Below, one piece after another: positions 1 to 26,639 of a stretch of DNA of 64,000 bases; the stretch's first letter is position 1, and the number at the start of each line of letters is the position of its first letter. This stretch comes from Clostridia bacterium (GTDB lineage: Bacteria > Bacillota > Clostridia > TANB77 > CAG-508). Below the pieces are notes generated by a model. The model was not told where the DNA came from, did no database searches, and saw only the letters and a list, made by a program, of their open reading frames with translations. Made by a program: the position numbers and the translations under genes. The stretch covers positions 8,331 through 72,330 of the forward strand of contig JAZUKI010000004.1 of assembly GCA_045643205.1 (NCBI GenBank). Reading direction: 5' to 3'.

Positions 1-339
1 CAAATGTTAGAAGCTGGTGCAAAATTATATGCAGTTAAATACACAGATCCAGGATTACAAGAAACAGCTACAGCTACATATTTACCATCTGGTGCTGTAA
101 TGCAATTAATTAGTACAAATCCTAATATTGTTCAAGATGCTAAAGTTAAGATTTATCAATACTATATCAAGAATGCAGATATGTATAGAAACAATGCTAA
201 CACAGGAATTCAAGCTGGACTAAATATGGTTGAAGCTGATGAAAGAACTGATGGAATCAGTGCAAATACAAGACAAGAAATTACTGCTACAAAAGATAAT
301 AGAGAAGAATATTTAGAGAATTTATCAGATATGGAATAA
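1..339 (+). CDS. Hypothetical protein, 3' end (5' truncated by the window edge); possibly the first gene of the Tad-like operon
   Basis: ORF runs in frame to the window start and ends at TAA 337-339. No motif recognised. Same strand as, and immediately upstream of, the ParA-like/CpaF genes. Confidence 0.35.
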   Translation, partial: QMLEAGAKLYAVKYTDPGLQETATATYLPSGAVMQLISTNPNIVQDAKVKIYQYYIKNADMYRNNANTGIQAGLNMVEADERTDGISANTRQEITATKDNREEYLENLSDME

Positions 340-415
340 TTAAAATTTATTTTAAACAAAACAATTAATTTATTACATAGTAAATTTTAATTAATAGAAC
401 GTACAAAAGAAAGGA

Positions 416-1114
416 ATGAGGATTTTGGAACAAGTAGGTTTTTTCGGACCAATAGATAAAAAAGATTTAATGCTTAATATAGGTAGGATACTAACTGAAT
501 TTGGAAAGAAAGTTCTAATAGTTGATGGAACATATTTACAGAGACTAAGATATGTTGTTCCAAAAATCGGCGGAGGACAATCTGCTACTTATATTAGTGA
601 ATATTGCGGAATAGATGTTGCAGTTGGTTTTATGAATGCTCGTGGAATCATGCAATATCTAGGTAGCAATGATTTACCATATGATTATATATTTGTAGAT
701 ACAGATAATATTCAAACCTTTAATTCATATGGTTTGGCGTTTATGAAAAAATTGTTTTTTGTAACGTCATACGATAGATATGAAGTTGGTAAAGCGAAGG
801 AAGTATTTAGTTTCTTTCAACAACCAATAACAATGAAAAGAATCATTATTTCTTCAGATACATCTAAAGAACAACAAGAAGCATTAAATAGAGAATATGA
901 TGAAATTCCAAATATAAAATTTGAAAATCAAGATATTGTTTTTGCAGATACTAACCAAGATAGAGAATTTACATTAGAAAATCAATTAACAAAATCAATA
1001 TCATATAAACATTATACAACTGGTTATAAAGATGATTTAGAATACTTAACTGCTACTATTGCAGAAGGTAATGTAGATCAAACTTTTATAAAAAGAATAA
1101 TAAGACAATCATAA
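416..1114 (+). CDS. ParA/MinD-fold protein with degenerate Walker A (TadZ/CpaE-like pilus assembly protein, paralogue 1)
   Basis: 232 aa. N-terminus FFGPIDKKDLMLNIGRILTEFGKKVLIVDGT has MinD-like topology (P-loop position followed by a VLIVD strand) but no GKT/S. The AAAGGA ribosome-binding site is very close to the ATG, so the exact start is uncertain. Confidence 0.4.
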   Translation: MRILEQVGFFGPIDKKDLMLNIGRILTEFGKKVLIVDGTYLQRLRYVVPKIGGGQSATYISEYCGIDVAVGFMNARGIMQYLGSNDLPYDYIFVDTDNIQTFNSYGLAFMKKLFFVTSYDRYEVGKAKEVFSFFQQPITMKRIIISSDTSKEQQEALNREYDEIPNIKFENQDIVFADTNQDREFTLENQLTKSISYKHYTTGYKDDLEYLTATIAEGNVDQTFIKRIIRQS

Positions 1115-1180
1115 AGCTAAAGAAAATAGCATAAAAAACAGAGGAAGATAATATAGAAAACAAAAGAGAAAGGAAAGAGT

Positions 1181-2032
1181 ATGTCAGTAATCACATTTTA
1201 CAATGAAGACAAAAACGAAGCTGGACAAACATTGGGTGCTGCCGCAATTGCATCAGTTTTTGGAATTGAACGTAACTATAAAATTTTACTTATATCAGTT
1301 GAACGTGAAGATTATAAAATGGAAGATGCATTTTTTAGACCTTCAAGAATTAACTTAACTAGTTTGTTCATGGGACAAAACACAGCTGCAACAGATGCTA
1401 CAAATGGTATTGAAGGATTAATGAGAATGTTCTCAAGTAATAGAGTTGATGCTGATGCTATCGCAAGTTATGCTCGTCCAGTATTAAAAGATAGACTTGA
1501 TGTATTACTACCATTAAAATCAAGAAGTATTGAAGAATTTCAAAATTCATCTAAGTTTTATTCACCAATAATTGATGCAGCAAATAAGTATTATGATTTA
1601 GTTTTAGTTGATATGTGTAAAGATGTATTACCAGAAACTAGAGAGACAATAATGAATTTATCAAGTTTAGTAGTTGTTGGATTAAATCAAAATTCTAATT
1701 CAATAAAAGAGTATATTAAACTTAAAGAAAAAGATGAAAAATATAGAAAAAACAATGTTATTACAGCATTGATGAAATACGATGATGCTTCAATGTTTAA
1801 TGCTAAGAACATGGCAAGAGAATTAAAAGAAAAAGACATACCATTATTAGTTCCTTATAATATTCATTTTACAGATGAATGTAGTGGAGGAAGAATATTA
1901 GATTATTTATTGAAGGCACACAGTTTACACTTTACAGATAGACCAGATGGATATTTCTATAGTACTGTTAAAGAGACAGTTGATAGAATTGATTACTTAA
2001 GAAAACAAGTTGATTATGGATTACGTACATAA
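1181..2032 (+). CDS. TadZ/CpaE-like ParA/MinD-family protein with degenerate Walker A (paralogue 2)
   Basis: 283 aa. ITFYNEDKNEAGQTLGAAAIASVFG...ILLISVE resembles the MinD deviant Walker A region with the Lys/Thr lost. RBS AAGGAAAGAG precedes the ATG. Sits directly upstream of the CpaF-like ATPase, as tadZ does in Tad loci. Confidence 0.45.
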   Translation: MSVITFYNEDKNEAGQTLGAAAIASVFGIERNYKILLISVEREDYKMEDAFFRPSRINLTSLFMGQNTAATDATNGIEGLMRMFSSNRVDADAIASYARPVLKDRLDVLLPLKSRSIEEFQNSSKFYSPIIDAANKYYDLVLVDMCKDVLPETRETIMNLSSLVVVGLNQNSNSIKEYIKLKEKDEKYRKNNVITALMKYDDASMFNAKNMARELKEKDIPLLVPYNIHFTDECSGGRILDYLLKAHSLHFTDRPDGYFYSTVKETVDRIDYLRKQVDYGLRT

Positions 2033-2199
2033 TTATATGGAACTGAATATTCATATTTATATAAAATAGAATTATATAAATATAGAAAGAATTATATATA
2101 TAATAGAAAGACTTTAATATTTATAAAAGAAAAAATTAAAATAGGCAAAGATAAAAAAGATAGTAGCTTAATTACAAAAGCGAAAGGAGCAATCGACAT

Positions 2200-4119
2200 A
2201 TGTTAATTAATGCAATACTTATAATTGCTATAGTTGGTGTAGCTTTTTATCTTATACAAAGAAAGATAAAATCGAATCAATTAAAAGCAGAAAACGAAGG
2301 TAAAATTAACGACGTTCAAGTTGATGATAAAACATATACTTTAGATATGATGATTAAATTCGTTAAGAAAAGAATTGACGAAATAACAAAGGTTAACTTA
2401 TATGACCTTGGTTTATCTGAAGAAGAACTTAAGAGAAGAAAAGATAAAAAGTATGAATTAAAGAAAGCTTTAAAAGGCTGTACATATGGCGATGTTAATG
2501 ACAAGAAATATGTAAAGGAATTAATTTTTGATATTTTATCTAAAGAGTATGGAGTTGATGAAACTAATGTATCAAAGGCAATACCATTTGATATTCCTTC
2601 ATTATTAACACCACAAGATAAATATGACATCATTATTTATATGTATCAAAAAGAATTTGGCTATGAAGCATGGAATACTATAATGAAGAAATACAACTTA
2701 GCCACTTTAAAATTCGTAGATGGTGATACAAAACCTTGTTATGTTGTTACTCCAGAAGAAATTAGTGATATTTATATAAAAGAAAACTACACGTTATCAT
2801 TCCAAGATAAATTAATGGTTGTAGTTCAAAGAATATATCAATTATATAAAGGATATAGTTCAATCGACGAACTAAGAGATCAAAATATTGATGGTATTTC
2901 AGGTGGTGTATCTGGTTTACCAGAATCATTCTTAAGTCAGGTTGCTCAAACTGACGCAAACTATTTAACAAAAGTTATGGATCATAAAGTACCACGTTCT
3001 TGTGATTCTATTTGGATCATGTATCATGGTATTTCAATCCGTATGGCATTCTTATCATTTGGAAATGAATCAGAATTAAAGAGAGTTTGCCAAAATATTT
3101 ATAAATATAATAACCCAGGCCAGTTATCTGATGCCAATGGTTATAAGATTAATGAAATGAAAGATGGTTCCCGTGTCGTTGTTGTAAGACCAAGTTTCTC
3201 AGAATCATGGGGATTCTTCGTAAGAAAATTCGATGTTAAGAGAGCTACTCTTGATCAATTAATCAAATGTGATGGAAAAGATGAAGCTATTGCTTTATTA
3301 ACATACTTAGTAAAAGGTGCCAGAATTATATCACTTACTGGTGAGCAGGGTTGTGGTAAAACAACTATGTTAATGGCAATGATTGAAAATATTTATGAAA
3401 CAATGAACATTCGTGTTCAGGAAGTTGCATTCGAGTTACACTTAAGAAAAATTTACCCAACACGTAACATTTTATCTTTCCGTGAAACAGAAACAATTTC
3501 TGGACAAGAAGGTTTGGACGTTCAAAAGAAGACTGACGGTTCTGTTAATATTATCGGTGAGGTTGCAACTGACGAGGTTGCTTCTTGGATGATTCAAGCT
3601 GCACAAGTTGCATCTAAATTTACATTATTTACTCACCATGCTAAAACATTCCCAGACTTAATTACAGCTCTTCGTAACTCAATGTTAAGAACTGGTGTTT
3701 TCAACAACGAATTAGTTGCTGAAAAACAAGTTGTTTCAGTATTAAACTTTGATATTCACTTAGTTAAGGATTTCAGAGGAAATCGTTATATTGAGAGAGT
3801 TACAGAATGTGTACCTGTTGAAGACTTCAACAACTATACATTCGATCAAGATAAAGAAAAAACAATTGAAGGTAAATTTGAAAAATTTGCTGACAATGCT
3901 ACAAGATTCTTTACAAAACAAACAAACAAAGAAATATTTACATATAGAAATATTATGGAATATCAAGATGGAGGATATGTTTTAACTAATAGAATTACAG
4001 ATGCAAACTTACGTGGAATGGTTACAAACATGGACGACAATGACTCTGAAGGATTTAGAGAATTTGCATATAAATATTGGGGCATTAAACTAAATGATAG
4101 AGGAGAAATTATAAAATAA
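2200..4119 (+). CDS. CpaF/TadA-family (PulE/VirB11 superfamily) secretion ATPase with an N-terminal transmembrane anchor and about a 200-aa N-terminal extension
   Basis: 639 aa. Walker A LTGEQGCGKTTMLMAM, an Asp box, Walker B and His box LFTHHAKTFPD are typical of type II/IV secretion NTPases. Residues about 1-20 (LINAILIIAIVGVAFYLI) are hydrophobic. Confidence 0.75.
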   Translation: MLINAILIIAIVGVAFYLIQRKIKSNQLKAENEGKINDVQVDDKTYTLDMMIKFVKKRIDEITKVNLYDLGLSEEELKRRKDKKYELKKALKGCTYGDVNDKKYVKELIFDILSKEYGVDETNVSKAIPFDIPSLLTPQDKYDIIIYMYQKEFGYEAWNTIMKKYNLATLKFVDGDTKPCYVVTPEEISDIYIKENYTLSFQDKLMVVVQRIYQLYKGYSSIDELRDQNIDGISGGVSGLPESFLSQVAQTDANYLTKVMDHKVPRSCDSIWIMYHGISIRMAFLSFGNESELKRVCQNIYKYNNPGQLSDANGYKINEMKDGSRVVVVRPSFSESWGFFVRKFDVKRATLDQLIKCDGKDEAIALLTYLVKGARIISLTGEQGCGKTTMLMAMIENIYETMNIRVQEVAFELHLRKIYPTRNILSFRETETISGQEGLDVQKKTDGSVNIIGEVATDEVASWMIQAAQVASKFTLFTHHAKTFPDLITALRNSMLRTGVFNNELVAEKQVVSVLNFDIHLVKDFRGNRYIERVTECVPVEDFNNYTFDQDKEKTIEGKFEKFADNATRFFTKQTNKEIFTYRNIMEYQDGGYVLTNRITDANLRGMVTNMDDNDSEGFREFAYKYWGIKLNDRGEIIK

Positions 4120-4195
4120 TGTAGCTTTCTAAAATATAATTTAATGAGAGCTATGTATAATAAGTAGACTATAGAAATGGAGGAAGAATTTTCGA

Positions 4196-6271
4196 ATGCC
4201 ATCAGGTTTTATATTTTTTATTGGAATAATGGCTGTTCTTATAATTGGAATAATAGTGCTTTTCATTTATCTACAAAAGAAAAGTAAAAATTCCGATGTT
4301 GCAAGAATACAAAAGTTGAGAAAAGGTACAGATACTAAGAAATTTTCTTCTGAAATTTTGTATCAAAAATTATATGTTTTCTATTTAAGATTTATCTTAA
4401 CAAGATTTTACTTACTAAAAATTCGTAGAAGACTAGAAATTAATAATGCTGATGATGAGTTTTCTGTTAGATTACAAGCAGCAAAAATTATTACTAAAGC
4501 ATTTGCAATTATAATTCCATTAACAATTGTAGTTATTATAATAACACATGAAAATTTCTTGTTAATGGCTATTATATTAATATTTGAATTATTTATAATA
4601 GATGCATTTACTGAAAATGCAGTTACAAAATTAGATAATGAATTACTAACTCAACAAGTTAATTTCTTTGCTGAAATGAGACATTCATATCACCAATGTA
4701 ATATGGTTGGAGAAGCAATATACTTAACAGCACAAGAAACAGATAATGTTGAAGTTGCAAGACAAGCTGAAAAAATATATGAAATTTTAAACTCAGCAGA
4801 TCCAGAAATAGAACTTGAAAAATATTATGATGTTGCACCTAATAACTATTTAAGAGAGTTTGCAGGATTATCATACTTAACCCAAGAATTTGGTGATAGA
4901 AGAATGGATAATAATGCATCATTATATTTAACAAACTTAAATAACATTTCACAAGAAATGCAACTTGAAATTTTAAAGAGAGATAAATTAAATTATGTTT
5001 TTCAATCTTTATCATTTATAGCAATTGCACCAATACTAATGCTTGAACCATTAAAAGCATGGGCAACAAGCAACTTTGGTTTTACTAAACCATTTTATAG
5101 TGGAAGTGGTGGATTGTTAATGCAAATATTAGTTATGATACTAACTTATGTTTGCTATATATTTGTTAGAAAAGTTAGAGATAGCGGTTCTACAAAATTA
5201 GTTCAGAACACACAAAACCCATGGCAAGAAAAATTATATAAATTTCCTATAGTGAAAAAAATTGTTGATTTAGTTATGCCAGCAAGGGGAACAAAAGATT
5301 ATATTAAGCTTGAAAGAAAGATGAAGGATGCTGGTTATAAAATTAAAACCAGATGGTTCTTTGTTAATAAATTAGTAATTTGTTTAGGGGCATTTATTAT
5401 CACATTATTAGTATGCTTTGGTATGCATATCATGCAAACAAATTTTGTTTATACTGATCCTACAGCAGATTACAACTTAATAAGTAACATGAATTCTAGT
5501 CAAGAGAAAAAAGCAATGGCTACTACATTACGCCAAAACAAAATTCTTGATCACTTCAAAGGAAAAGACAAATTAAAAGATACTGAAATATATGACTACA
5601 TGAAAAAACAAGCTGACTATGAAAGTATGCAAGATGATGATATATACAGAGAAATTGCTCAGATTAGAAGTAAATTAACTACATTAAATGGTGAATATTT
5701 AAAAGCTTATGAAGTTTTACTAGCATTTGCAATAGCAGCATTAGGATATGTTTTCCCTAATATTATGCTTAAGTTCCAAACTAAAATGAGACAAATGCAA
5801 ATGGAAGATGAAGTTATGTCATATCAAACAATTATCATGATGTTAATGAGAATTGAGAGAGTTGATGTTGAGATGATTCTTGAATGGCTTGAAAGATATT
5901 CAGATATATTTAAACCACAAATTAGCAAATGTTTGAATAACTATGAATCAGGTGCCTGGGAAGCACTTGATGAAATGAAAGATGAAATTACTTATGAACC
6001 TTTAATAAGAATTGTTGAAAGTTTACAAACAGCAGTTGAACAAGTTCCAATAAAAGAAGCATTTGAAGAACTTGATGCAGACAAAGATTATTATAAGGAT
6101 AAACGTAAAGAAACAAACGAAAGATTAATAGCTAGAAAAGGAAGAATTGGAAAGATTATTGGTTTCGCACCGATGGTTGTTGCATTCGTTGGATACTTAA
6201 TTGTTCCATTAGTATTAATTGGTATGGAATCAATGAACAGTACGTTCGATGAAATGTCATCAATGAACTAA
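4196..6271 (+). CDS. Polytopic inner-membrane protein, probably a fused TadB/TadC-like (T2SS F-family) platform
   Basis: 691 aa with about 7-8 predicted TM helices in two similar blocks separated by cytoplasmic domains. Lies between the secretion ATPase and the pilin-like genes. No sequence signature verified beyond topology. Confidence 0.45.
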   Translation: MPSGFIFFIGIMAVLIIGIIVLFIYLQKKSKNSDVARIQKLRKGTDTKKFSSEILYQKLYVFYLRFILTRFYLLKIRRRLEINNADDEFSVRLQAAKIITKAFAIIIPLTIVVIIITHENFLLMAIILIFELFIIDAFTENAVTKLDNELLTQQVNFFAEMRHSYHQCNMVGEAIYLTAQETDNVEVARQAEKIYEILNSADPEIELEKYYDVAPNNYLREFAGLSYLTQEFGDRRMDNNASLYLTNLNNISQEMQLEILKRDKLNYVFQSLSFIAIAPILMLEPLKAWATSNFGFTKPFYSGSGGLLMQILVMILTYVCYIFVRKVRDSGSTKLVQNTQNPWQEKLYKFPIVKKIVDLVMPARGTKDYIKLERKMKDAGYKIKTRWFFVNKLVICLGAFIITLLVCFGMHIMQTNFVYTDPTADYNLISNMNSSQEKKAMATTLRQNKILDHFKGKDKLKDTEIYDYMKKQADYESMQDDDIYREIAQIRSKLTTLNGEYLKAYEVLLAFAIAALGYVFPNIMLKFQTKMRQMQMEDEVMSYQTIIMMLMRIERVDVEMILEWLERYSDIFKPQISKCLNNYESGAWEALDEMKDEITYEPLIRIVESLQTAVEQVPIKEAFEELDADKDYYKDKRKETNERLIARKGRIGKIIGFAPMVVAFVGYLIVPLVLIGMESMNSTFDEMSSMN

Positions 6272-6309
6272 ATAGCATTGATATAAATTAAGAGGAAAGG
6301 ATTTGTTAA

Positions 6310-6906
6310 ATGGAAAATGCTTCTTTGGCCTTACGTATGGCTGGTGGTGTATTAATTGCATTATTAATAATTGGTGTTTTTGTATCAGTTATGGTAGTTA
6401 TTAATAACAATCAACAAAAGCAACAAGACGAAGAAGATTTGCGACAAGTTGAACAATTTAACGAATCCTATAAATCTTATGAAAATAGAATTGTTACTGG
6501 ATATCAAATGATTTCATTAACTAATAAAGCAATTGATTATAATGAGCGTATGTCAAAAGAATCTAAATATGCAGATTCAGCAACTTACTATACACCAATT
6601 CATATATATGTTATTTTAGAGTCTGAAGCCAATGGTGGAAGTGTAAAGCTTCCTGGTCAAAAGACTAAAAATGATAATAAAAATGCAAACAAAAATAATT
6701 ATATAGATTTAAATGATTATTATAAAAAATATTATTCTTCAGCATCTACAGAAACAAAGAATGAATTTAAAAATATGTATTTTAAATGGGAAAAAACAGA
6801 ACATGTTAGTCCAAATGCAAAAGATACAGAAGGAAAAAGTCTTGGTAATGTAGATGGAGTAGGAAGAGTATATGAAATGTATTTCAAAGAATATGTAAAA
6901 GATTAA
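6310..6906 (+). CDS. Pilin-like protein P1 (N-terminal MENAS...GG hydrophobic segment)
   Basis: 198 aa. N-terminus MENASLALRMAGGVLIALLIIGVFVSVMVV is followed by a polar extracellular region. Paralogous to P2, P4 and P5. RBS GAGGAAAGGA. Confidence 0.5.
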   Translation: MENASLALRMAGGVLIALLIIGVFVSVMVVINNNQQKQQDEEDLRQVEQFNESYKSYENRIVTGYQMISLTNKAIDYNERMSKESKYADSATYYTPIHIYVILESEANGGSVKLPGQKTKNDNKNANKNNYIDLNDYYKKYYSSASTETKNEFKNMYFKWEKTEHVSPNAKDTEGKSLGNVDGVGRVYEMYFKEYVKD

Positions 6907-6923
6907 TAAAGGAGAAGTAAAGC

Positions 6924-7676
6924 ATGGATGAAAACGCTTCTCAATCTCTATTAATGGTTGGGGGAATATTATTAGCAATTTCAGTATTAAGTTTCTTCGT
7001 ATATGCAATGGCATCATTCGGTGGATTTGCAAGTAATATGAATGCTCAAATCGGAGAAAGTGAAATACAGAAACATAATCAAAATTTTCAAAAATATGAA
7101 AGCAGATATAACATTACATTTCAAGAAATTGTTTCTACAATAAATTATGCAAAAGATTGGAATGATCAAAATGATTATTCATTTGATCAAGTTACGAATT
7201 CTAACAACGATAAAAAAGGCCAATATGTTGTAAATGTTAACATTATTGATGCTAAAGGCAATGTAATCCAAGTTTTTGGAAAAAATGCTAATAGTTTAAT
7301 TAATGAAGCAAATTATAAAGATAATCAAAAAATAAAAAACATTTTAAACAAAATGCTAAATGATTCAAATTATTCTGATTATTATTATGCTGTAAATGTT
7401 AAGGCAATTGATATTTTAAAAAAGAAAGAAAATAATTATTACGTTTTAAATGGACAATTTGGAGCTAAACATGGAACAATTGCTAAAAAAGATAAAGATA
7501 TAGGCATAAATTCAACAACAGGTTTAGTTGAAGAAATTTATTTTACAGCAGTATCAAAAAGTAATTATTCAAACATTGATCAATTTAAAGTTGTTAACAA
7601 ACAAGGAAAAGATGTAAATGTAGAATACAAAGTTAAGGATAGAGAATATTTTAGAATGGCTGAATTAGAGGGTTGA
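6924..7676 (+). CDS. Pilin-like protein P2 (MDENAS...GG N-terminus)
   Basis: 250 aa. MDENASQSLLMVGGILLAISVLSFFVY. Shares the post-TM motif Q-x-F-x-x-Y-x-x-Y-E-x-R with P1 (QFNESYKSYENR versus QNFQKYESRYN). RBS AAGGAGAAG. Confidence 0.5.
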   Translation: MDENASQSLLMVGGILLAISVLSFFVYAMASFGGFASNMNAQIGESEIQKHNQNFQKYESRYNITFQEIVSTINYAKDWNDQNDYSFDQVTNSNNDKKGQYVVNVNIIDAKGNVIQVFGKNANSLINEANYKDNQKIKNILNKMLNDSNYSDYYYAVNVKAIDILKKKENNYYVLNGQFGAKHGTIAKKDKDIGINSTTGLVEEIYFTAVSKSNYSNIDQFKVVNKQGKDVNVEYKVKDREYFRMAELEG

Positions 7677-7679
7677 TGA

Positions 7680-8114
7680 ATGAAAAAAAGTACACTAACA
7701 GTTATCATATTAATGTTAATAGTATTTGGTTTAGCAGTCTATTTTGCAATTAATTCTAGAATAGGATCAAACATAGCTTCAGAAGAAAATAGATATTATC
7801 AACAATTATTGAATAAAGAAATAACAGGAACAGAATTATCATCTGTTATAAATAAAGTTATAGATACAAATAAGAAAAATGAAATTTCTTTAGATGATAA
7901 AAAGTTATATAAAGAAAATGATAGTAACTCAATTATAATGGAAGTTACATTCAAATATGAAGATGGAACAAAAACACTCAGAGGAGAGAAAATCTACAAT
8001 GGTGAAATTAAAAATTTTATTTCATATTATGGAAATATCAAATTCAAATGTACTAAACTAGAATATCATGATTCAACTAAGAAAGTTAAGAAAATATATG
8101 TAGAAGAAATATAA
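7680..8114 (+). CDS. Small membrane-anchored protein P3 (pilin/pseudopilin-like, different N-terminus)
   Basis: 144 aa. MKKSTLTVIILMLIVFGLAVYFAI is a TM segment followed by a polar domain. Start is 4 nt after the P2 stop, so translational coupling is likely. Confidence 0.4.
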   Translation: MKKSTLTVIILMLIVFGLAVYFAINSRIGSNIASEENRYYQQLLNKEITGTELSSVINKVIDTNKKNEISLDDKKLYKENDSNSIIMEVTFKYEDGTKTLRGEKIYNGEIKNFISYYGNIKFKCTKLEYHDSTKKVKKIYVEEI

Positions 8115-8282
8115 TTCAAAAAGAATATATATGAAATATAATATGATTCAAAAGATAGAAAATATAAAACACAAAAGATTTAGATAAACAAAAGTGCAGA
8201 AAAACATAAATTATATTATATTTATTACTTAGTTTTTAAAATTTTAAACATAAATTAATTTATTTTTTAGGAGGAAAATTTT

Positions 8283-8834
8283 ATGGAAAATGCATCAAAA
8301 GCCCTAATTATAGTAGGTGCCGTACTTATTGCAATTTTATTAATCGGTTTTGGAGTTATGATTTTAAATAACTCAACAAGTCAGGTTAGTCCTGATGCTT
8401 TGAACTCACAAGCAGCTCAAACACACAATGCACAATTTAATAATTACACAGGAAAAACAATTACAGCTCAACAAGTTAAAACATTAATGAATGTTATTAC
8501 AACAAATAATGTAACAGGTAAAACAGCAGACACACCACAAAAAGTATATGTTTACTATACACCAGCATCAGCAACAACATCAACATCAACATCAGATAAA
8601 GAAGCGATTAAAGAAGGATATAATGATCCAGCAAGAATTTCTGCAGCTGTAAGAAATGGTTACACATATACAGTTGAAATTAATAACTCAAATGCAGTTG
8701 ATGTTACAGACAAAGAAGTAACAGATGAAAGCACAGCACCAAGTGATAAAAATGATACATCAGCAGCAAGTTATTATTCAAATGGTTATATAAGAGTTAT
8801 TTGTATTACAGAAAATTCAAGAAGTAGCAAATAA
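8283..8834 (+). CDS. Pilin-like protein P4 (MENAS...VGAVLIA N-terminus)
   Basis: 183 aa. MENASKALIIVGAVLIAILLIGFGVMIL, with a Thr/Ser-rich C-terminal half. RBS AGGAGGAAAA. Confidence 0.5.
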   Translation: MENASKALIIVGAVLIAILLIGFGVMILNNSTSQVSPDALNSQAAQTHNAQFNNYTGKTITAQQVKTLMNVITTNNVTGKTADTPQKVYVYYTPASATTSTSTSDKEAIKEGYNDPARISAAVRNGYTYTVEINNSNAVDVTDKEVTDESTAPSDKNDTSAASYYSNGYIRVICITENSRSSK

Positions 8835-8881
8835 TTAACTAGTATATTGTACTAATATCCATAAAATTAGGAGAAATATAA

Positions 8882-9757
8882 ATGGAGAATGCATCAGAAG
8901 CTTTAAAAATGGCAGGCGCTATGCTAATTTTTGTAGTGGCCTTAACCATCACAATAATTTCATTTACTGCCGCAAGACAAGCTTCTGATAGCATTGTCAG
9001 TACTTATGGCCAGTTAACTACTTTTTATGATTATGAACTATACAAAAATACAGGTTCATATAGAGAAGTAAAATCTGATGAGATAATAGCTAATTTGTAT
9101 TCATATTATCAAACCAACAATACAATTTTGTTTTATTATTTAAAAGATGGAACTTATAATACAAAGAGTAAAACCTTTTCAACAGATGCTGTCATTAATA
9201 AGATGACTTTATATTATACTCCTACATCAGACACGGTAACACAAGCAGATAAAAACCAAGGAAGGCTTTCAAACTTAAGAAAATCATTCTTAAGAAATAC
9301 AACTCTTGGTGATGATGATACACGTGCAATTTATGGATTAGACATTCAAGATGAAACAATAACTAGAAATGAAGCCTGGAAGGGAACAGCAGGAGATGCT
9401 AAAATCTTTATAGATTGTTTAGTTTCAGGAACTACATATGTAAATAACAATGTAAGTAAATCAAATTATAATGATATTAATCGTACATATTATGATAATA
9501 AAGGAACATTAAATATTATATTTCAATATCAAGGAATATTAAAAAAGCCATTGAATCAAGCTAGTGATTGTTTATTCATTGAAAGAGATGGAGAATATAT
9601 TTCTTCAGCGAAAGATGAAGATACAAGAAATGATGAATGGAAAAGAGTTGTCGCAAATTCAACCGAGGAGTTGAATGATGAAGTTTTAGAAAATAATACT
9701 GCTACAACAAAGAAAGTAATACAGTATATTTATATACCAAATGAAAAGTGTATATAA
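8882..9757 (+). CDS. Pilin-like protein P5 (MENAS...AGAMLIF N-terminus)
   Basis: 291 aa. MENASEALKMAGAMLIFVVALTITIISF. RBS AGGAGAAAT. Confidence 0.5.
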   Translation: MENASEALKMAGAMLIFVVALTITIISFTAARQASDSIVSTYGQLTTFYDYELYKNTGSYREVKSDEIIANLYSYYQTNNTILFYYLKDGTYNTKSKTFSTDAVINKMTLYYTPTSDTVTQADKNQGRLSNLRKSFLRNTTLGDDDTRAIYGLDIQDETITRNEAWKGTAGDAKIFIDCLVSGTTYVNNNVSKSNYNDINRTYYDNKGTLNIIFQYQGILKKPLNQASDCLFIERDGEYISSAKDEDTRNDEWKRVVANSTEELNDEVLENNTATTKKVIQYIYIPNEKCI

Positions 9758-9870
9758 GTAAAGAGTATAAAAAACAGACAAAGCATAGATATATAAGGGT
9801 TACATGTCTAATTTCATAGTATATTTTTGGAATAAAATTGTTAAAAATTACCTATATTTGGGTAAAACTA

Positions 9871-9899
9871 TTGGAAAAACGGGAAAATCATGCTATAAT
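9871..9899 (+). promoter_or_regulatory. Putative sigma-A-type promoter for P6 (TTGGAA-17 bp-TGcTATAAT)
   Basis: TTGGAA at 9871-9876, a 17-nt spacer, and TATAAT at 9894-9899 with a TG extended -10. Sits about 35 nt upstream of RBS AGGAGGA and the ATG at 9935. Confidence 0.4.
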
Positions 9900-9934
9900 A
9901 TTAGTATTGATTAAATTTTTAGGAGGATAAGAGA

Positions 9935-10459
9935 ATGAATGATACAGTAATGTCAATCGTTGCAATCTTTTTGGCAGCAATTTTAATGTTTATATTTCCA
10001 CTAATGTCTACTGCAGATAGAAGTGATGATATAGCACAACAAGCTGTACAAACACAAACAACTGAGTTTGTTGATAATATTAGAACTACTGGAAAAATAA
10101 CTCAAGATAGTTATAATAGTTTTGCAACAACTATTGCTGGAACTGGTAATTCTTTTGATATAGAGCTTGAAGTTCAAATACTAGATGATAATGCTAGAAA
10201 GAAAACAGCTCAAGCATCAGCATCTAAAGTTGGTGAAAATAGTTATTATAGTGAGTATACATCACAAATCCAAGAACATATGGATAAAAATGGTGGAACT
10301 TATATTTTAAAAGAAGGTGATATTGTATCTTGTACAGTTAGAAATACAAGCCAAACAATGTCTCAAATGTTAAAGAATTTCTTTTACCAAGTAACAGGTA
10401 ATAATTCATATAATATTTCTGGACAACACTCAGGAATTGTTAATGTTAATGGAAATTAA
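9935..10459 (+). CDS. Membrane-anchored pilin/pseudopilin-like protein P6
   Basis: 174 aa. MNDTVMSIVAIFLAAILMFIFPLM is a TM segment followed by a polar domain. Own promoter and followed by a terminator. Confidence 0.4.
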   Translation: MNDTVMSIVAIFLAAILMFIFPLMSTADRSDDIAQQAVQTQTTEFVDNIRTTGKITQDSYNSFATTIAGTGNSFDIELEVQILDDNARKKTAQASASKVGENSYYSEYTSQIQEHMDKNGGTYILKEGDIVSCTVRNTSQTMSQMLKNFFYQVTGNNSYNISGQHSGIVNVNGN

Positions 10460-10488
10460 TAATTAAATAAAAATGTATAAATGAAAAA

Positions 10489-10519
10489 TAAACTTAAGAC
10501 AACTTGAGTTTATTTTTTT
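10489..10519 (+). terminator. Rho-independent terminator closing the pilin gene block
   Basis: TAAACTTAAG-acaa-CTTGAGTTTA forms a 10-bp stem with one G-U pair, followed by TTTTTTT. Confidence 0.65.
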
Positions 10520-10564
10520 GTTTGTATATAATTATTTTCATAAAATAGGTGAAGGAATTGATAA

Positions 10565-11581
10565 ATGAAGGATTCAAAAATTTCTTTTAAGTTAATTGAT
10601 TTTATAATTCTTAATATAGCAATAGTTGCAATAATTGCAGTTATTGTTTTTTGTAATGTAAATAAATTACATAATAATTCAAATCCTAGCAGTATTTCAA
10701 AAGAAATTATTCAAGAAGACTTAAAAAAATCAATAGAAAATAGATATTACTATAATCAATTAGATGCTAATGGTCAAAAAATGTACAATACATTTTTAAG
10801 TAACACTGAAAAATTTAGAGCAGGAAACGAATACATATCAATTGATATAAATGAAGAAAGTGCAGGGGATAGTTTTCAAGCAGCATGGGATGCATTTTCT
10901 GTAGATAGACCAGAGTATTTTTACATAGATACTAATAAACTTTCACTATTAACTAATGTTAAAACTAACATTTTTAATAATAAAGAATATGAATATAAGC
11001 TTCAACCTAAGAACGGAGAAACATATTTTGAAAAAGAATTTCCAACAAAAGAGGATGTTGATTTTGCAAATTCACAATTAGAAACAATTACTAAATCAAT
11101 AATAGATCAAGCAAATAGCAAATCAACTAGATATGAGAAAGTAAAGTTTATACATGACTATCTAGTAGATAACATTTCTTATTCAAAAGATGAAAATGAA
11201 GCTAGTGCTGATACAATATATGGAGCATTGATTAATAAAGTTTGTGTTTGCGAAGGATATGCAAAATCATTCAAATATTTATTAGATAAATTAGAAATAC
11301 CATGTATTATTGTTTTTGGAAACGGAACCAACTCAGAGGGAAAACAAGAATATCATTCTTGGAACTATGTGAAAATGGAAGATGATAAATGGTATGCTGT
11401 TGATGTTACATGGGATGATCCTATTGTAGTTGGCGGAGGAAAAGTAACAACAGCAATTAAGTATAAATATTTTTTAGTTGGAACAGAAATTAATTCTAAT
11501 CATACTTTAGAATCAGATATCTCAGGAACAGGTCAAAATTTTAAATATCCTGAGTTAAGTTTTAGTAACTATAGTAAATAA
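10565..11581 (+). CDS. Membrane-anchored transglutaminase-like cysteine protease-fold protein
   Basis: 338 aa. N-terminal TM segment FIILNIAIVAIIAVIVF. Cys-His-Asp triad context CVCEGYAKSF ... EYHSWNYV ... WYAVDVTWDD matches the transglutaminase-like core. Confidence 0.7.
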   Translation: MKDSKISFKLIDFIILNIAIVAIIAVIVFCNVNKLHNNSNPSSISKEIIQEDLKKSIENRYYYNQLDANGQKMYNTFLSNTEKFRAGNEYISIDINEESAGDSFQAAWDAFSVDRPEYFYIDTNKLSLLTNVKTNIFNNKEYEYKLQPKNGETYFEKEFPTKEDVDFANSQLETITKSIIDQANSKSTRYEKVKFIHDYLVDNISYSKDENEASADTIYGALINKVCVCEGYAKSFKYLLDKLEIPCIIVFGNGTNSEGKQEYHSWNYVKMEDDKWYAVDVTWDDPIVVGGGKVTTAIKYKYFLVGTEINSNHTLESDISGTGQNFKYPELSFSNYSK

Positions 11582-11609: not shown

Positions 11610-11886
11610 TTAAGTATAGAGAATAATAAAAAAATAGGAGCAATCTAAATTGCTCCTATTTTTATGTTGTTTATTTGTTATCGCTGTTATTGTTATTATT
11701 GCTATTATTATAGTTGTTATAGCCATGGTTGTTATGGTTATAATTGTTATATCCATGATTATTATGATTATAATAATTATTTTTATAATTGTTATGGCCA
11801 TGGTAGTTATTATAATTATTGTGATAATGATAATTACTATTCTTAGTATTATTGTTATTATTGTTATTATTATTATTTTCAACTGA
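11610..11886. repeat. Low-complexity (ATT/ATA/GTT)n microsatellite-like tract, open in several frames on both strands
   Basis: About 270 nt made almost only of att/gtt/ata/atg triplets. The ORF track shows stop-free frames on both strands. It encodes the Asn/Tyr/His-rich tail of the murC ORF. Confidence 0.7.
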
Positions 11887-13512
11887 TTCTTCTGATTGAG
11901 ATTCAGTTACATTGTTTGATGGAGTAGAGCTAAATTGTTCTAATGAATCAAAGTTCTCTATTTTTGTTTCTTCAATTGATGAACATGTTTCACAGTCATT
12001 TTCTTGAGTACAAGCACATTTATTTGTACATCCATTTGCACATTCGTTTTCACAATGATCTTCACATTCATTTTCGCAGTGATCTTCACAATGACATTCA
12101 AAAGTAGAAGAGCATTCAGCAGAGTCTTGTTCACTTTTAACAAGTTCATGTCCAACTTTAGTGATTGAACCAGCACCTTGTGTAATGATGATATCATCTG
12201 GTTTTGCATTTCTTCTAACAAAATCAACAATGTTTTCTAAATCTTTAATATAGTATGCTTTTCTACCAAGAGCTTCGATTTTATCAATAATATCTTTTGA
12301 AGATACTTCGTTATTATCAATTTCTCTAGCAGCATATATATCAGTAACAATAATGTTATCAAAGTTTGTTAAAACATTAGCAAAGTCATCTAGCAATGCT
12401 TTTGTTCTACTAAATGTATGTGGTTGGAAAAGAATCCATGAATGATTATATTTTCTCTTTTTAACTGCATTTGCAACAGCTAAAATTTCTGTAGGATGAT
12501 GTCCATAATCATCAAAAACATTTGCACCATTAACTTTTCCTAAATATTGAAAACGTCTTTCAGCACCACCATATGTTTTTAATGTATTTTTTACTGAGTT
12601 TTTATCAACTTCAAATTGACTACAAACAGCGATACAAGCTAATGCATCATAAATATTATGTTCTCCAGGAACACCTAGTTTGAATGTTTTATAAAAAGTA
12701 TTGTTATGATAAACATCAAATGAAGCACATCCGTTTACATCATAAGAAATATTTTTTGCTACAAAGTTTGCATTATTTGATTTTATACTAAATGAAATAC
12801 TCTTTGCTTTAGTATGAGAAGATAGTCCATGACAATTCTCATCATCAGCATTGTAAACCAATATTCCATCATCAGGTAATAATTTAACGTATTCTACGAA
12901 AGCTGCTTTAATATTGTCCATTGTTTTATAGTAATCTAAGTGATCATTATCAATATTTAAGATAACTTCAACTTTAGGGAAGAAATCTAGGAAACTTGCA
13001 GAATATTCGCAAGCTTCAATGATAAAATATTCACTTTCACCAACTCTATAATTTCCACCAATTGAATCTAAAACAGCGCCAATTTGAATTGTTGGATCTT
13101 TTTTGGCATCTAAGAAACATTGAGCAATCATTGAAGTAGTAGTCGATTTTCCATGAGTTCCAGAAACACAAATAGAATTTCTGAAAACTCTAGTAAGTTC
13201 ACCCATGATTTCTTTTCTTTCAATTGTAGGAATACCTAATTCTTTAGCTCTAACTAATTCAGGATCTTCTGGTTTTATAGCTGCAGAATAAATAACTAAA
13301 TCAGATCTATCAACATTCATAGGATTATGACCTATATAAACTGGGATATCATTTTCAATTAATTGATTTGTAATGTCAGATTCGGTTGAATCAGAGCCAG
13401 TTACATTAAAATCCCACTTTTTTAAAATTTCGGCAATACCACTCATAGATGAACCACCGATACCTATCATATGTATATTTTTATATTGTTTTAGTTCTTG
13501 TAAATTTGGCAT
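11671..13512 (-). CDS. murC: UDP-N-acetylmuramate--L-alanine ligase MurC with an unusual C-terminal extension of about 150 aa (Cys/His/Glu-rich, then Asn/Tyr/His-rich)
   Basis: N-terminus MPNLQELKQYKNIHMIGIGGSSMSGIAEIL (the MurC GIGG nucleotide motif). Start chosen at ATG 13510-13512, preceded by GGAGAT. The MurC domain ends near ...ITKVGHELVK, and the frame stays open for about 150 more aa. Confidence 0.85.
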   Translation of the reverse strand: MPNLQELKQYKNIHMIGIGGSSMSGIAEILKKWDFNVTGSDSTESDITNQLIENDIPVYIGHNPMNVDRSDLVIYSAAIKPEDPELVRAKELGIPTIERKEIMGELTRVFRNSICVSGTHGKSTTTSMIAQCFLDAKKDPTIQIGAVLDSIGGNYRVGESEYFIIEACEYSASFLDFFPKVEVILNIDNDHLDYYKTMDNIKAAFVEYVKLLPDDGILVYNADDENCHGLSSHTKAKSISFSIKSNNANFVAKNISYDVNGCASFDVYHNNTFYKTFKLGVPGEHNIYDALACIAVCSQFEVDKNSVKNTLKTYGGAERRFQYLGKVNGANVFDDYGHHPTEILAVANAVKKRKYNHSWILFQPHTFSRTKALLDDFANVLTNFDNIIVTDIYAAREIDNNEVSSKDIIDKIEALGRKAYYIKDLENIVDFVRRNAKPDDIIITQGAGSITKVGHELVKSEQDSAECSSTFECHCEDHCENECEDHCENECANGCTNKCACTQENDCETCSSIEETKIENFDSLEQFSSTPSNNVTESQSEESVENNNNNNNNNNTKNSNYHYHNNYNNYHGHNNYKNNYYNHNNHGYNNYNHNNHGYNNYNNSNNNNNSDNK

Positions 13513-13850
13513 AAAACAAAAATCTCCTTTACATATAGTCAAGTTACAAACTCTATTATACTACAAAACGGGCAAAAAAACAACAAATTAAGTAAAATAG
13601 AGAGGTAGAGTAAAGACAAAAATTTTGTCTTAAAAGGAACAAAAAGACACAGAAAAAAACATAAAAAAGCGAGTAGAAATTTTGAGCAAAATATTAATCA
13701 AAAAAATATGAAAAAACATGTAAAAAAATGCAAATAATTGTAAAAAACTATTGAAAATTTTATTTATTTATTATAAAAATTATACAGGTAAAGTTTTATC
13801 GCGTATATAGTACGTAAGTACAATTAAAACTTTGGAAGGAGACTTTTTAA

Positions 13851-16322: not shown

Positions 16323-18614
16323 ATGCAGTTAGTCGGCGAATTAGAAGATATAATTTATAGAAATGACACCAATAGCTACACAGTAGCTAGTTTTATTGTG
16401 CATGCTATGGATGAAAATATATCTAATAGTGAGCAAATAAGTTTTGAAGAACAAGGTATAAAATTTGCTAAAGAACTTGCTACTGTTTTTGAAACAACTA
16501 TTGTTGGATTTTTACCATTTATTAATCCAGGAGATAATCTTAAATTAATAGGAAAATTTGTTACTCATCCTGATTATGGTGAACAATTTAAGATTGAGAC
16601 ATTTGAAAAAATAATGCCACAAACATTAGATGCGTTAGAAAGATATTTAGGAAATGGATTAATCAAAGGAGTAGGAAAAGCTACAGCTAAAAAAATAATC
16701 CAAGAATTTGGAGAAGATACTGTTGAAGTAATAAAAGCTTATCCTGAAAAATTGGTTAAAATTAAAGGAATCACACCAGATAAAGCAATTGAAATTTCAC
16801 AAAGTTTTAACGAAAGTTGGGATATGTGGCAAATAGTTGGATTCCTTGATAAATTTGGGATTGGAGCACAATCTGCACAAAGTATTTATAAAACATTAGG
16901 ACAAGATACAATAGAAAGAATTCAAAATGATCCATACATTTTAGAAGATTGTGGAGTTAAAGTTGATTTTGCTCAAATTGACAAAATGGCATTATCAATT
17001 GGAATAGAAAGAACATCACTTAGAAGAATTGGAAGTGGAATTATTCACGCACTTAATTTAGCAACATATAATGGACATACTTGTGTTTTAGAAAGCAATT
17101 TAATAAATTTTACAACTCAACTTTTAGGAATTTCAGAAGAAGATGTAACTAATGGAATTATTGATTTAAAAGCCAAAGAAAAGATTGTTGAAGAAGAAAG
17201 AGAATCAATGGTTACTATTGATGGTAAAACTGAAATGAAAAATGCAAATTGGGTGTATCTTAAAAATTACTTTGATGCCGAACTTAATATTGTTAGAAAA
17301 ATCAAAGCTTTGCAAGAATCAGAAAATTTAAAAAAATTTGCTAATGTAGATAAAAGAATAAAAGAAGTTAGTGAAATAACTCCTTCTGAAAAACAAATAG
17401 AAGCAATAAAATTAGTTAATAATAACAATGTTGCAATTATTACCGGAGGACCTGGTACTGGAAAAACAACAATTATAAAAACACTTATAGAATTATATGA
17501 ATCAATCGGAAAGAAGACTGTTTTATGTGCGCCAACAGGAAGAGCTGCAAAACGTATGACAGAAGCAACAGGCAAAGAAGCAAAAACATTACATAGATTA
17601 CTGGAAATCAATAAAATAGGTGAAGAAAAACCAAATCCTGATTTAAATGTTGCTCCAATAGATGCAGATGTAATCATTATTGATGAGATGTCAATGGTTG
17701 ATTTATTCTTAATGAATTATTGCTTAAATGGAATTTATAAAGGTACAAAACTAGTAATGGTAGGAGATGTTGATCAATTAGCATCTGTAGGACCAGGCTG
17801 TGTTTTAAAAGATTTAATTGATTCTGGAAAAGTTCCTTTTATAGCATTAAATAAAATTTTTAGACAAGCTGCAAAAAGTAAAATTATTGTTAATGCCCAC
17901 AAAGTAAATGAAGGAATTAACTTTATTGAAGAGAGAAGCGAAGGCGATGAAACTATTGATGATTTTGAGTTTAATAACCAAACTAATCTACAAGTCGCTC
18001 AAAGTATGATTTTAGCATTATATGATTTTGACACTCAAATTATCACACCAACTAAAAAAGGTGATTTAGGAACTCGTACACTAAACGAACTAATTCAAAA
18101 AAGATATAATCCAGAAGATGATAATAAGCGTGAGAAAAAATTCGGCAGTGTCATTTTTAGAGAAGGTGACAAAGTAATGCAAACCAAGAATAATTATGAC
18201 ATTGAGTGGAAAAGAAAAAATTCAACATTTGGGTATGAAGTAGAGTATGGTTCTGGAATTTTTAATGGTGAAATGGGAATTATTGAAAGTATTGATAAAG
18301 ACGGAACTATTGAAATTAGATTTGAAGATGGTAAAGTTGCAGAATATGTAACACAGGATTTAGAACAGATTGAACATTGTTTTGCCATTACAATTCATAA
18401 ATCACAAGGGAGTGAATTTGAAAAAGTTCTAATGCCAATTTTAGGAGCAGCTCCAATGCTACTTACAAGAAACGTTCTATACACGGGAATGACAAGAGCA
18501 AAAAATAGACTAACTATTATTGGAAGCAGTAATACAGTTGAATATATGATAAATAATGCAAATAGCAGAATGAGAAATTCAGGTTTGAAATTTAAACTAG
18601 AAGAAACATTATAA
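16323..18614 (+). CDS. recD2: ATP-dependent RecD-like DNA helicase (RecD2 family)
   Basis: 763 aa. N-terminal HhH-containing region, Walker A ITGGPGTGKTT, and C-terminal helicase motifs (QSQGSEF). Confidence 0.85.
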   Translation: MQLVGELEDIIYRNDTNSYTVASFIVHAMDENISNSEQISFEEQGIKFAKELATVFETTIVGFLPFINPGDNLKLIGKFVTHPDYGEQFKIETFEKIMPQTLDALERYLGNGLIKGVGKATAKKIIQEFGEDTVEVIKAYPEKLVKIKGITPDKAIEISQSFNESWDMWQIVGFLDKFGIGAQSAQSIYKTLGQDTIERIQNDPYILEDCGVKVDFAQIDKMALSIGIERTSLRRIGSGIIHALNLATYNGHTCVLESNLINFTTQLLGISEEDVTNGIIDLKAKEKIVEEERESMVTIDGKTEMKNANWVYLKNYFDAELNIVRKIKALQESENLKKFANVDKRIKEVSEITPSEKQIEAIKLVNNNNVAIITGGPGTGKTTIIKTLIELYESIGKKTVLCAPTGRAAKRMTEATGKEAKTLHRLLEINKIGEEKPNPDLNVAPIDADVIIIDEMSMVDLFLMNYCLNGIYKGTKLVMVGDVDQLASVGPGCVLKDLIDSGKVPFIALNKIFRQAAKSKIIVNAHKVNEGINFIEERSEGDETIDDFEFNNQTNLQVAQSMILALYDFDTQIITPTKKGDLGTRTLNELIQKRYNPEDDNKREKKFGSVIFREGDKVMQTKNNYDIEWKRKNSTFGYEVEYGSGIFNGEMGIIESIDKDGTIEIRFEDGKVAEYVTQDLEQIEHCFAITIHKSQGSEFEKVLMPILGAAPMLLTRNVLYTGMTRAKNRLTIIGSSNTVEYMINNANSRMRNSGLKFKLEETL

Positions 18615-20412: not shown

Positions 20413-20502
20413 GTTTTATATAAATAGCAAGAAATAAAATTAAGCAAAGATAAATGAAATAGCAAATAAAGAACAAATAGTTCTAAGAAATAAAGGAAAA
20501 AG

Positions 20503-21624: not shown

Positions 21625-21639
21625 ATAAAGAGGATAATT

Positions 21640-22674: not shown

Positions 22675-22788
22675 AATTTATAAAAGATATGAAATCAGAA
22701 AATAAATTTATTAAAAAATAAAATTGAAATTTATGCAAAAGACAAAAGTTTATAAAAAATCAAAAAATAATTTAGATGGAGAAGAAGA

Positions 22789-23532: not shown

Positions 23533-23577
23533 AAAATATAAGACAAGAATAAATATCAAAATAAAACAGGAGATTTT

Positions 23578-24351: not shown

Positions 24352-24369
24352 AAGTGGGGGAAAATAATA

Positions 24370-26619: not shown

Positions 26620-26639
26620 GTATAAGATAGAAGGAAAAA

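Follow-up and report, generated by a model that had tools for sequence, protein, structure and literature searches.

Can a gene cluster that encodes neither a recognisable Flp pilin nor a prepilin peptidase build a type IV filament? The question is raised by the first 10,520 nucleotides of a 64,000-nucleotide stretch of DNA from a Clostridia bacterium of the order TANB77 (assembly GCA_045643205.1, contig JAZUKI010000004.1). This whole stretch, called the window below, has a GC content of ~27% and carries nearly all of its genes on the + strand. Region 1-10520 holds eleven co-oriented open reading frames (ORFs), counting a partial SAF gene at the 5' edge. We interpret it as encoding the machinery with which a Gram-positive cell would assemble a type IV filament of a divergent Tad type (type IVc-like), and put the probability of this at about three in four; that the machine makes an extracellular pilus we also consider likely.

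A sequence-only reading of the same DNA had proposed a Tad-like pilus locus and called it possibly uncharacterised. The first suggestion is well supported, as set out below, and the second had to be given up, as the same cluster has been published for TANB77. Kim et al. (Nat Commun 2024) described a 12-gene "pilus gene cluster" conserved in this uncultured gut order, annotated via AlphaFold and Foldseek and independently of the present analysis (PMC11680825). In that cluster, 927 is CpaB-like (358 amino acids, aa), 928 TadZ-like (231 aa), 929 CpaE-like (280 aa) and 930 a TadA (640 aa, one transmembrane (TM) helix), 931 consists of TadB and TadC halves (693 aa, eight TM helices), 932-937 are pilin-like, and 938, of 621 aa, is partly TadE/PilV-like (PMC11680825). 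The genes of the window match 927-937 one-to-one in order and TM topology, and because of this gene-for-gene match we regard the cluster as already known: it is a known predicted Tad-like pilus and not a new kind of system, although unusual in its details. Its features are listed here with the number of the corresponding published protein.

4..339, + strand: 3' end of the SAF gene (last 111 codons of 440), CpaB/RcpC-like; protein 927
416..1114, + strand: P1, degenerate ParA/MinD-like (TadZ-like), 232 aa; protein 928
1181..2032, + strand: P2, ParA-family (CpaE/TadZ-like), 283 aa; protein 929
2200..4119, + strand: membrane-anchored CpaF/TadA-family secretion ATPase, 639 aa; protein 930
4196..6271, + strand: fused inner-membrane platform, 691 aa, 7-8 predicted TM helices; protein 931
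6310..6906, + strand: pilin-like paralogue, 198 aa, MENASLAL start, hhalign 99.9% to the family of the 8283..8834 protein; protein 932
6924..7676, + strand: pilin-like paralogue, 250 aa, MDENASQSL start, hhalign 99.9%; protein 933
7680..8114, + strand: pilin-like paralogue, 144 aa, in which an ordinary MKK... signal/anchor replaces MENAS; protein 934
8115..8282, + strand: AT-rich intergenic region of 168 nt, read directly from the sequence, with an AGGAGG Shine-Dalgarno sequence and promoter-like hexamers
8283..8834, + strand: candidate major subunit, 183 aa, invariant MENASKALII N-terminus; protein 935
8882..9757, + strand: pilin-like paralogue, 291 aa, MENASEAL start; protein 936
9935..10459, + strand: conserved 174-aa protein with an N-terminal helix (MNDTVMSIVAIFLAAILMFIFPLMS...), a separate family; protein 937
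10487..10520, + strand: terminator-like AT-rich hairpin followed by a T-run (dG -14.4 kcal/mol, z = -5.5), which closes the operon

Lengths agree closely for 928-931 (232/231, 283/280, 639/640 and 691/693 aa, window/paper), whereas the SAF protein is longer in the window (440 versus 358 aa), as are several of the pilin-like proteins (198, 250, 183 and 291 versus 165, 170, 146 and 237 aa). The two accounts also differ over the platform, for which the paper, working from structure, puts TadC in the first half and TadB in the second while our profiles give TadB then TadC, and over distribution, the cluster having been called TANB77-exclusive while we find the cassette on Bacillota plasmids.

Gene order and conservation

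All of the ORFs named in the sequence-only reading between 416 and 10459 are present on the + strand, and the Tad-like order that it described is general. We fetched 80 related genome loci for comparison of gene order and identity, and the succession of SAF gene, P1, P2, ATPase, 691-aa protein and small proteins is kept in 80 of 80; since the same order recurs in all of them, the arrangement is not due to chance. Median identity across the loci is ~75% for the ATPase, 55% for the 691-aa protein, 54% for the 174-aa protein at 9935-10459 and ~35% for all remaining locus proteins. For calibration, in relatives that keep synteny RarA is 81% identical, the SPFH protein 78%, RuvA 60% and MurC 55%. 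The ATPase therefore lies near RarA and above MurC in conservation, which argues for a functional machine. Judged by these identities, the ATPase is conserved like a good housekeeping protein, while the genes for accessory proteins and subunits change quickly. Metagenome-assembled genomes of uncultured Clostridia, CAG:245 among them, are the closest relatives; one related locus (L013) comes from Clostridium sp. CAG:245, and the genus CAG-245 has been placed in TANB77 (PMC11680825). The context of the cluster in TANB77 is one of chromosomal housekeeping genes (ruvA-rarA ... murC-spoVG), and on a contig 97% identical to the window (L001), ruvA, rarA and the SPFH gene lie upstream of the locus.

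The locus had been taken to start within the window, which proved wrong. ORF 4-339 encodes the C-terminal 111 aa of a 440-aa protein, so the first gene begins upstream; a complete copy, with TM helix and SAF domain, is seen at L001:3456-4778. The protein has an N-terminal TM helix and matches Pfam SAF with E = 9.3e-6 and 26.6 bits (cutoff 21), and its gene stands upstream of the cassette in 75 of the 80 loci. In plasmid cassettes, discussed below, the gene at this position is annotated "SAF domain-containing protein". No match to the RcpC domain was found in this protein and its hhalign match to CpaB is weak (E = 0.016); TM anchor and SAF domain together are what a CpaB/RcpC-type component would have. 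At the other end, the terminator noted earlier is borne out as the AT-rich hairpin at 10487-10520, which a consensus scan missed because its stem has fewer than three G-C pairs. Pfam and NCBIfam scans of all locus proteins gave T2SSE and SAF only, the rest being noise, and exact-sequence look-ups of window proteins returned no record.

The ATPase, the platform and the ParA-like pair

The ATPase had been described as carrying an N-terminal TM helix and an extension of roughly 200 aa, and both are found. A single N-terminal hydrophobic helix occupies residues 1-19, with basic residues after it, and a family-specific N-domain reaches ~residue 266, with the CpaF-like N-terminal and C-terminal domains beyond. 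Because the CpaF-alignable part starts only at ~residue 267-277, we take the extension to be real; with it the protein exceeds Caulobacter CpaF by ~100 aa and short TadA proteins by ~200 aa. Its motifs are intact (Walker A GEQGCGKTT, Walker B IIGEV, His box THHAK), and it matches Pfam T2SSE at 30.2 bits, above the gathering cutoff of 24.9. Among PDB sequences, CpaF is found with E = 2.6e-7 from the single sequence and 4.5e-17 from a family profile that includes plasmid homologues, and the same profile gives 1.5e-4 for archaeal GspE, 6e-4 for FlaI and 1e-3 to 5e-3 for VirB11; bacterial PilB, PilT and GspE do not occur among the profile matches listed. Since the CpaF score is far better than the others, the ATPase groups with CpaF/TadA and not with VirB11/TrbB. 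It nevertheless forms a subfamily of its own, whose Bacillota plasmid members are 35-55% identical to it over the full length and 40-71% over the core domain, as against ~26% for canonical CpaF. The TM helix, the ~250-aa N-domain and the motifs are conserved across this subfamily, plasmid homologues included. Its best NCBIfam match, far under cutoff, is "TadA family conjugal transfer-associated ATPase".

The 691-aa protein had been proposed to be a single fused platform, and this is borne out: both halves have GspF/PilC-type cytoplasmic folds, and profile comparison supports an N-terminal half that is TadB-like and a C-terminal half that is TadC-like. In hhalign comparisons with platform genes of Tad loci, the N-terminal half matches the first gene (95%, E = 2.8e-8) and the C-terminal half the second (77%, E = 2e-5), while controls with cross-pairs and reversed sequences reach at most 1%. 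Most of the signal comes from split genes of a Clostridium botulinum plasmid (92% at 5e-7 and 97.5% at 7e-12). There is no Pfam, NCBIfam or PDB sequence match with a shallow or a deep profile, while the halves do match split platform genes and, weakly, TadB and TadC, and we count the TadB-plus-TadC pair of T2SSF/GspF-type domains as present. Foldseek of the full-length model against PDB gave nothing significant, hhalign of one half against the other revealed no internal repeat (0.6% and 8%), and no homologue was found in a phage collection. An exhaustive platform search gave 1188 clusters (50% identity), and of the 150 listed almost every one is full length (620-760 aa), so the fused state is the norm for the family.

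The clearest relatives of the two halves are two adjacent polytopic proteins encoded on C. botulinum pRSJ20_1 (L085, 6824-11203), whose genes follow one for a type II secretion/type IV pilus-family ATPase. That locus differs from ours in that the platform is split in two genes, the ATPase is shorter (468 aa) and ~25% identical, and a 57-aa Flp-sized ORF follows; neither of its platform proteins reaches Pfam T2SSF. It should be a useful intermediate for tracing the platform fusion.

Two tandem TadZ-like genes, both with a degenerate Walker A motif, had been proposed. The degeneracy holds for both and ParA-family membership for P2, whereas P1 is only weakly ParA/MinD-like. The P2 profile finds the ParA-family ATPase 3ea0 in PDB with E = 1.3e-6, followed by Get3, CooC and Soj, and a Thermobacillus homologue is annotated ParA; the P-loop lysine is replaced (consensus KETGQT). 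Its best TadZ/CpaE-specific match is a weak collinear hhalign alignment to a Streptomyces TadZ-like protein (16%, E = 0.0016). P1 has no Pfam match, and its family profile finds MinD alone, weakly. It carries a P-loop-like motif at G11..D14-K15 (consensus GAYDKTD), with the Lys-Thr kept and Asp at the P-loop Gly position, and a Walker-B-like YDxxLID. Kim et al. reported its counterpart, 928, to be structurally similar to TadZ (PMC11680825). Comparison of P1 and P2 with CpaE by hhalign was negative or marginal, which is weak negative evidence given the tiny template alignments. We also considered an archaellum-like FlaH-FlaI-FlaJ order and dropped it, as P2 is of the ParA family rather than KaiC/RecA-like and the ATPase is closest to CpaF.

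Tad/Flp (type IVc) loci, both those of Aggregatibacter and Caulobacter and those of monoderms such as a Streptomyces plasmid locus (L086), have the same order of CpaB/SAF, TadZ-like, TadA/CpaF, TadB, TadC and subunit genes, and CpaF is the closest relative of our ATPase. A secretin is lacking here, as expected without an outer membrane. The present system departs from Tad in its fused platform, its two ParA-like genes, its distant ATPase with TM helix and N-domain, and its subunits with globular domains; moreover, neither Flp (G/XXXXEY) nor TadV was found, and Pfam and hhalign detected no TadE or TadF. Tad has been proposed to derive from archaeal Epd/Aap-type type IV pili (Denise et al. 2019, PMC6668835), and these resemble the present system in their single two-domain platform, in subunits with a globular domain, and in a very short polar N-terminus ending in a charged, a small and then a hydrophobic residue, and archaeal GspE and FlaI are the next-best solved relatives of the ATPase after CpaF. 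However, the ATPase is much closer to bacterial CpaF, the SAF and ParA-like accessories are Tad-typical, and the TadB-then-TadC order that our profiles give for the halves is opposite to the order given by Denise et al. (PMC6668835). This order suggests a secondary fusion of adjacent tadB and tadC genes rather than an ancestral unsplit gene.

Pilin-like proteins and their maturation

Six pilin-like genes had been counted. Five of the small proteins (those starting at 6310, 6924, 7680, 8283 and 8882) are indeed paralogues by hhalign (97-99.9%), while the sixth, at 9935-10459, belongs to a separate family, with an hhalign probability of only 29.5% against the MENAS family. The 7680..8114 protein matches the 8283 family at 98.3% past its helix, and its position is conserved in the loci; for the 8882..9757 protein the match, of 97%, covers the N-terminal 45 residues. 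The 9935..10459 protein is the best conserved of the small proteins (54% median identity versus ~35% for the others), and its homologues hold the same position in plasmid cassettes.

Four of the six small proteins start with M(D)ENAS (near-invariant MENAxxAL), after which comes a hydrophobic helix. Over 237 unique N-termini from related loci, conservation is 98% for M1, 95% for E2, 99% for N3, 92% for A4, 97% for A7, 96% for L8 and 92% for A11; position 6 is K, D, E, N or R in 97%, and position 7 is a small residue in 99%. The extreme N-terminus is therefore more conserved than the rest of these proteins, which are ~35% identical, and the 54 sequences of the 8283 family, whose identity elsewhere drops to 33%, share residues 1-10 without exception. 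A near-invariant N-terminus with a hydrophobic helix is the layout expected of a pilin. We take the 8283-8834 protein as the candidate major subunit, because its N-terminus is invariant, its gene is short (the shortest paralogue in most relatives) and tandem-duplicated in several of them, and it has its own intergenic region with an AGGAGG Shine-Dalgarno sequence. The promoter-like sites there (8086-8115 and 8115-8142) are consensus matches only, no more frequent than in shuffled sequences; in the published cluster, several pilin genes are predicted to have promoters of their own (PMC11680825).

The small proteins are not of a familiar Tad type. Pfam, NCBIfam and hhalign all fail to link them to Flp or TadE, and hhalign to TadE/TadF-type proteins gives at most 2%, with tiny template alignments. 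The two long gaps between genes of the pilin run contain no Flp-type ORF of at least 20 aa, and where an Flp major pilin has 50-80 aa and G/XXXXEY, the candidates here have 144-291 aa and a MENAS start. They possess globular domains of 100-260 aa, of unknown fold, and Tad Flp pilins have none. Such domains could mean that no extracellular filament is made, and that the locus builds a short pseudopilus or piston (type II secretion-like) that exports or displays proteins, or simply encodes membrane-anchored surface proteins; the many diverged paralogues with no single dominant pilin, and the Lys before the helix, which also fits a plain signal anchor, would suit this idea. We think it improbable, since the extreme N-terminus is conserved beyond the needs of a mere membrane anchor, one short, duplicated paralogue has, in the manner of major pilin genes, a strong Shine-Dalgarno sequence and an intergenic region to itself, and no secreted cargo candidate is conserved in the loci.

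The last protein of the published cluster, 938, has no orthologue (540-830 aa, MKLQ/MKIQ start) detectable by tblastn over the 64-kb window. Its gene follows that of 937 in 61 related loci and in plasmid cassettes; in the window, 9935-10459 is followed instead by the terminator and then by an unrelated transglutaminase-like gene. The sole reported TadE/PilV-like component is thus absent from the window. Recombinant 938 activates dendritic cells via TLR4 and improves the anti-PD-1 response in mice, and TANB77 has been linked in ten cohorts to better checkpoint-blockade responses (PMC11680825). The cluster is the signature surface structure of TANB77, and as the lineage studied here has the machine without 938, read-based "938 abundance" and "TANB77 abundance" can come apart. 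A spoIVB-like gene lies after that of 937 in the nearest multi-gene relatives (L002-L004, L006 and L019) and is missing in the window.

Maturation of the subunits is the weakest step of the explanation that we propose. Every known type IV filament system is defined in part by a prepilin peptidase. As the sequence-only reading had stated, the window offers neither an Flp pilin nor such an enzyme: Pfam scans, which took in the locus ORFs and most, not all, multi-TM ORFs elsewhere in the 64 kb, gave no Peptidase_A24 match in the scanned window ORFs. A phmmer search of the 80 loci from a single CpaA query, in itself a weak test, likewise found none, and none is annotated beside six plasmid cassettes.

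We give about an even chance to trimming after Ala7 (consensus [K/D/E/R]-A before the cut and L after it) by an unlinked class-III signal peptidase, and rate this as slightly more likely than use of the uncleaved N-terminus. Positions 6-8 ([K/D/E/R]-[A/G]-L) resemble an archaeal-type class-III signal-peptidase site, which we treat as a lead. Plasmid subunit homologues mostly keep K-[A/G]-[L/I], and the small residue found at position 7 in 99% of the N-termini is expected of a -1 cleavage position. The MSH locus and other type IV filament loci without a linked peptidase borrow one (PMC6668835), and an unlinked gene could lie outside the window, related loci and plasmid neighbourhoods to which our search was confined.

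Set against this is the more doubtful possibility that the same machine assembles subunits with their translated N-terminus (fMet/Met1-Glu2-Asn3...) intact. Because each ORF was listed from the earliest start codon that follows a stop, no longer N-terminus, and hence no longer leader, is possible for the MENAS ORFs, and an upstream extension is present in only 13 of 309 ORFs. Residues 1-4 (MENA) are 92-99% conserved across the paralogues and invariant in the 8283 family, which one would not normally see in a leader that is discarded. Plasmid homologues again carry an acidic residue at position 2-3 (MDS.., MES.., MGE..), which could act as pilin Glu5, and no A24 peptidase gene occurs in any examined cassette, including those on plasmids that move between hosts. 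In its fullest form, to which we give only tentative credence, this idea has leaderless MENAS subunits (Glu2 serving for Glu5) in a self-sufficient, peptidase-independent system that spreads vertically and on plasmids and may make a mating or aggregation pilus. If true, it would be the first peptidase-independent type IV filament; a near-invariant, very short N-terminus with no linked peptidase raises the question of whether a type IV filament can form without prepilin processing.

Two candidates for a processing enzyme in the window were considered and rejected. The 156-aa, 4-TM ORF at 53677-54147 (+) might be a cryptic aspartic peptidase, but it gives no Peptidase_A24 signal and falls in no Pfam family; its Asp27 after the first TM helix and a G-A-D79 have a spacing reminiscent, speculatively, of small aspartic prepilin peptidases. 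The transglutaminase-like gene at 10565-11581 (+) sits past the terminator and is adjacent in only 6 of the 80 loci; its product (338 aa, N-terminal TM helix, Pfam Transglut_core at 2e-15) is probably not part of the system. Elsewhere in the window, a gene for a RecD2-type helicase (16323-18614, +) is followed by a ComFC-like gene (18777-19454; phosphoribosyltransferase plus double zinc ribbon), which hints at DNA-uptake machinery. A ComG-type pilus elsewhere in the genome, if present, would bring a prepilin peptidase.

Proposed mechanism, plasmid cassettes and neighbouring genes

If the locus does encode a Tad-type machine, a membrane-tethered ATPase hexamer would dock on the cytoplasmic GspF-like domains of the platform, and ATP hydrolysis would lift membrane-embedded subunits into a growing helical filament, with the 8283-8834 protein as the major subunit and its paralogues as minor or tip subunits. 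The P-loop-degenerate ParA-like pair may act as a TadZ-like scaffold or localisation factor, without an enzymatic role, and the SAF protein may line the passage through the cell wall. The filament would serve gut adhesion or aggregation and, on plasmids, perhaps cell-to-cell mating contact.

Several observations weigh against this interpretation. The ParA-likeness of P1 is marginal (MinD at E = 0.1, and an hhalign probability of 49% between P1 and P2). Compared with Pfam-positive TadB and TadC alone, a set of proteobacterial and actinobacterial proteins, the platform halves match more weakly, in the same order (46% at 2e-4 and 7% at 5e-3), with cross-pair and reversed controls again at no more than 1%. 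A prepilin peptidase is missing from the scanned window ORFs, the 80 loci and the six plasmid cassette neighbourhoods alike. Finally, a filament has yet to be observed, TANB77 being uncultured and the paper containing no microscopy (PMC11680825). Work on the cluster there is in silico except for immunology on one subunit, and prepilin processing is not discussed (PMC11680825); our literature search found no later experimental work on the TANB77 pilus.

By tblastn, the platform is present on 35 large Bacillota plasmids of 61-543 kb, from Paenibacillus, Lysinibacillus (pBsph), Thermobacillus, Cohnella, Alkalihalophilus, Sporosarcina, Cytobacillus and Butyrivibrio as well as Clostridium argentinense, C. 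botulinum and C. beijerinckii. All six of the cassette-bearing plasmid neighbourhoods examined contain the full cassette with its gene order unchanged, so it is not exclusive to TANB77. Cultivable Bacillota with full cassettes, such as Paenibacillus, Lysinibacillus, Alkalihalophilus and Butyrivibrio, open to experiment a system that is not yet accessible in TANB77. The gene after a plasmid cassette typically encodes an SLH or cell-wall-binding-repeat protein, followed by a giant protein of ~870-1200 aa (DUF5704 in Bacilli), and a GGDEF diguanylate cyclase comes after the cassette in three (C. argentinense, C. beijerinckii and A. pseudofirmus). On the other side, a hypothetical protein of ~480 aa precedes the plasmid cassettes (L081-L083 and L088-L090).

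The plasmid distribution could point to another role, in mating or DNA transfer and not in general adhesion. The cassette would then be an accessory comparable to the IncI thin pilus but for Gram-positive cells, or else belong to a conjugation or DNA-uptake system, and the TANB77 copy would be a domesticated plasmid module. pBsph carries VirD4, VirB4 and VirB6 homologues along with this "pilus assembly ATPase" (PMC4363355), and a pBsph-like plasmid, p1593, is conjugative and can mobilise IME8 (PMC13239906). A replication-relaxation gene is found close to the Thermobacillus copy, the sub-cutoff NCBIfam match of the ATPase names conjugal transfer, and the window has its ComFC-like gene. However, MOB-suite types all 35 plasmids as non-mobilizable, and one study saw no transfer of pBsph. 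The SLH/cell-wall-binding, DUF5704 and GGDEF neighbours point to surface adhesion or biofilm control. The TANB77 copy has a chromosomal housekeeping context with no relaxase, VirB4 or VirD4 nearby, and Pfam and NCBIfam scans gave no VirB4- or VirD4-like match among the locus proteins or their neighbours, as a conjugative type IV secretion system would have. We therefore regard a mating or transfer role as unlikely for this locus and prefer the Tad-type filament machine described above.

A second, independent appendage locus may lie at 57695-61833 (+), a possible sortase-dependent surface-protein or pilus cluster with these members:

57695-58273, + strand: S26 signal peptidase
58285-58881, + strand: 198-aa protein with N-terminal signal and C-terminal TM helix
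58878-59630, + strand: sortase
59644-61833, + strand: 729-aa protein with signal and C-terminal TM helix

Downstream of the pilus locus, the murC ORF (11671-13542, -) has an unusual low-complexity C-terminal tail of ~150 aa (3' part, ~11671-12150), Cys/His/Glu-rich at first (CHCEDHCENECEDHCENEC...) and then rich in Asn, Tyr and His, and a 15-bp bidirectional terminator (11630-11663) separates murC from the convergent gene. Finally, the region ~19441-36732 (+), with a long series of glycosyltransferases, an ABC-2 exporter pair, PMT-like proteins and large polytopic proteins, has the look of a cell-wall glycopolymer or surface polysaccharide cluster.

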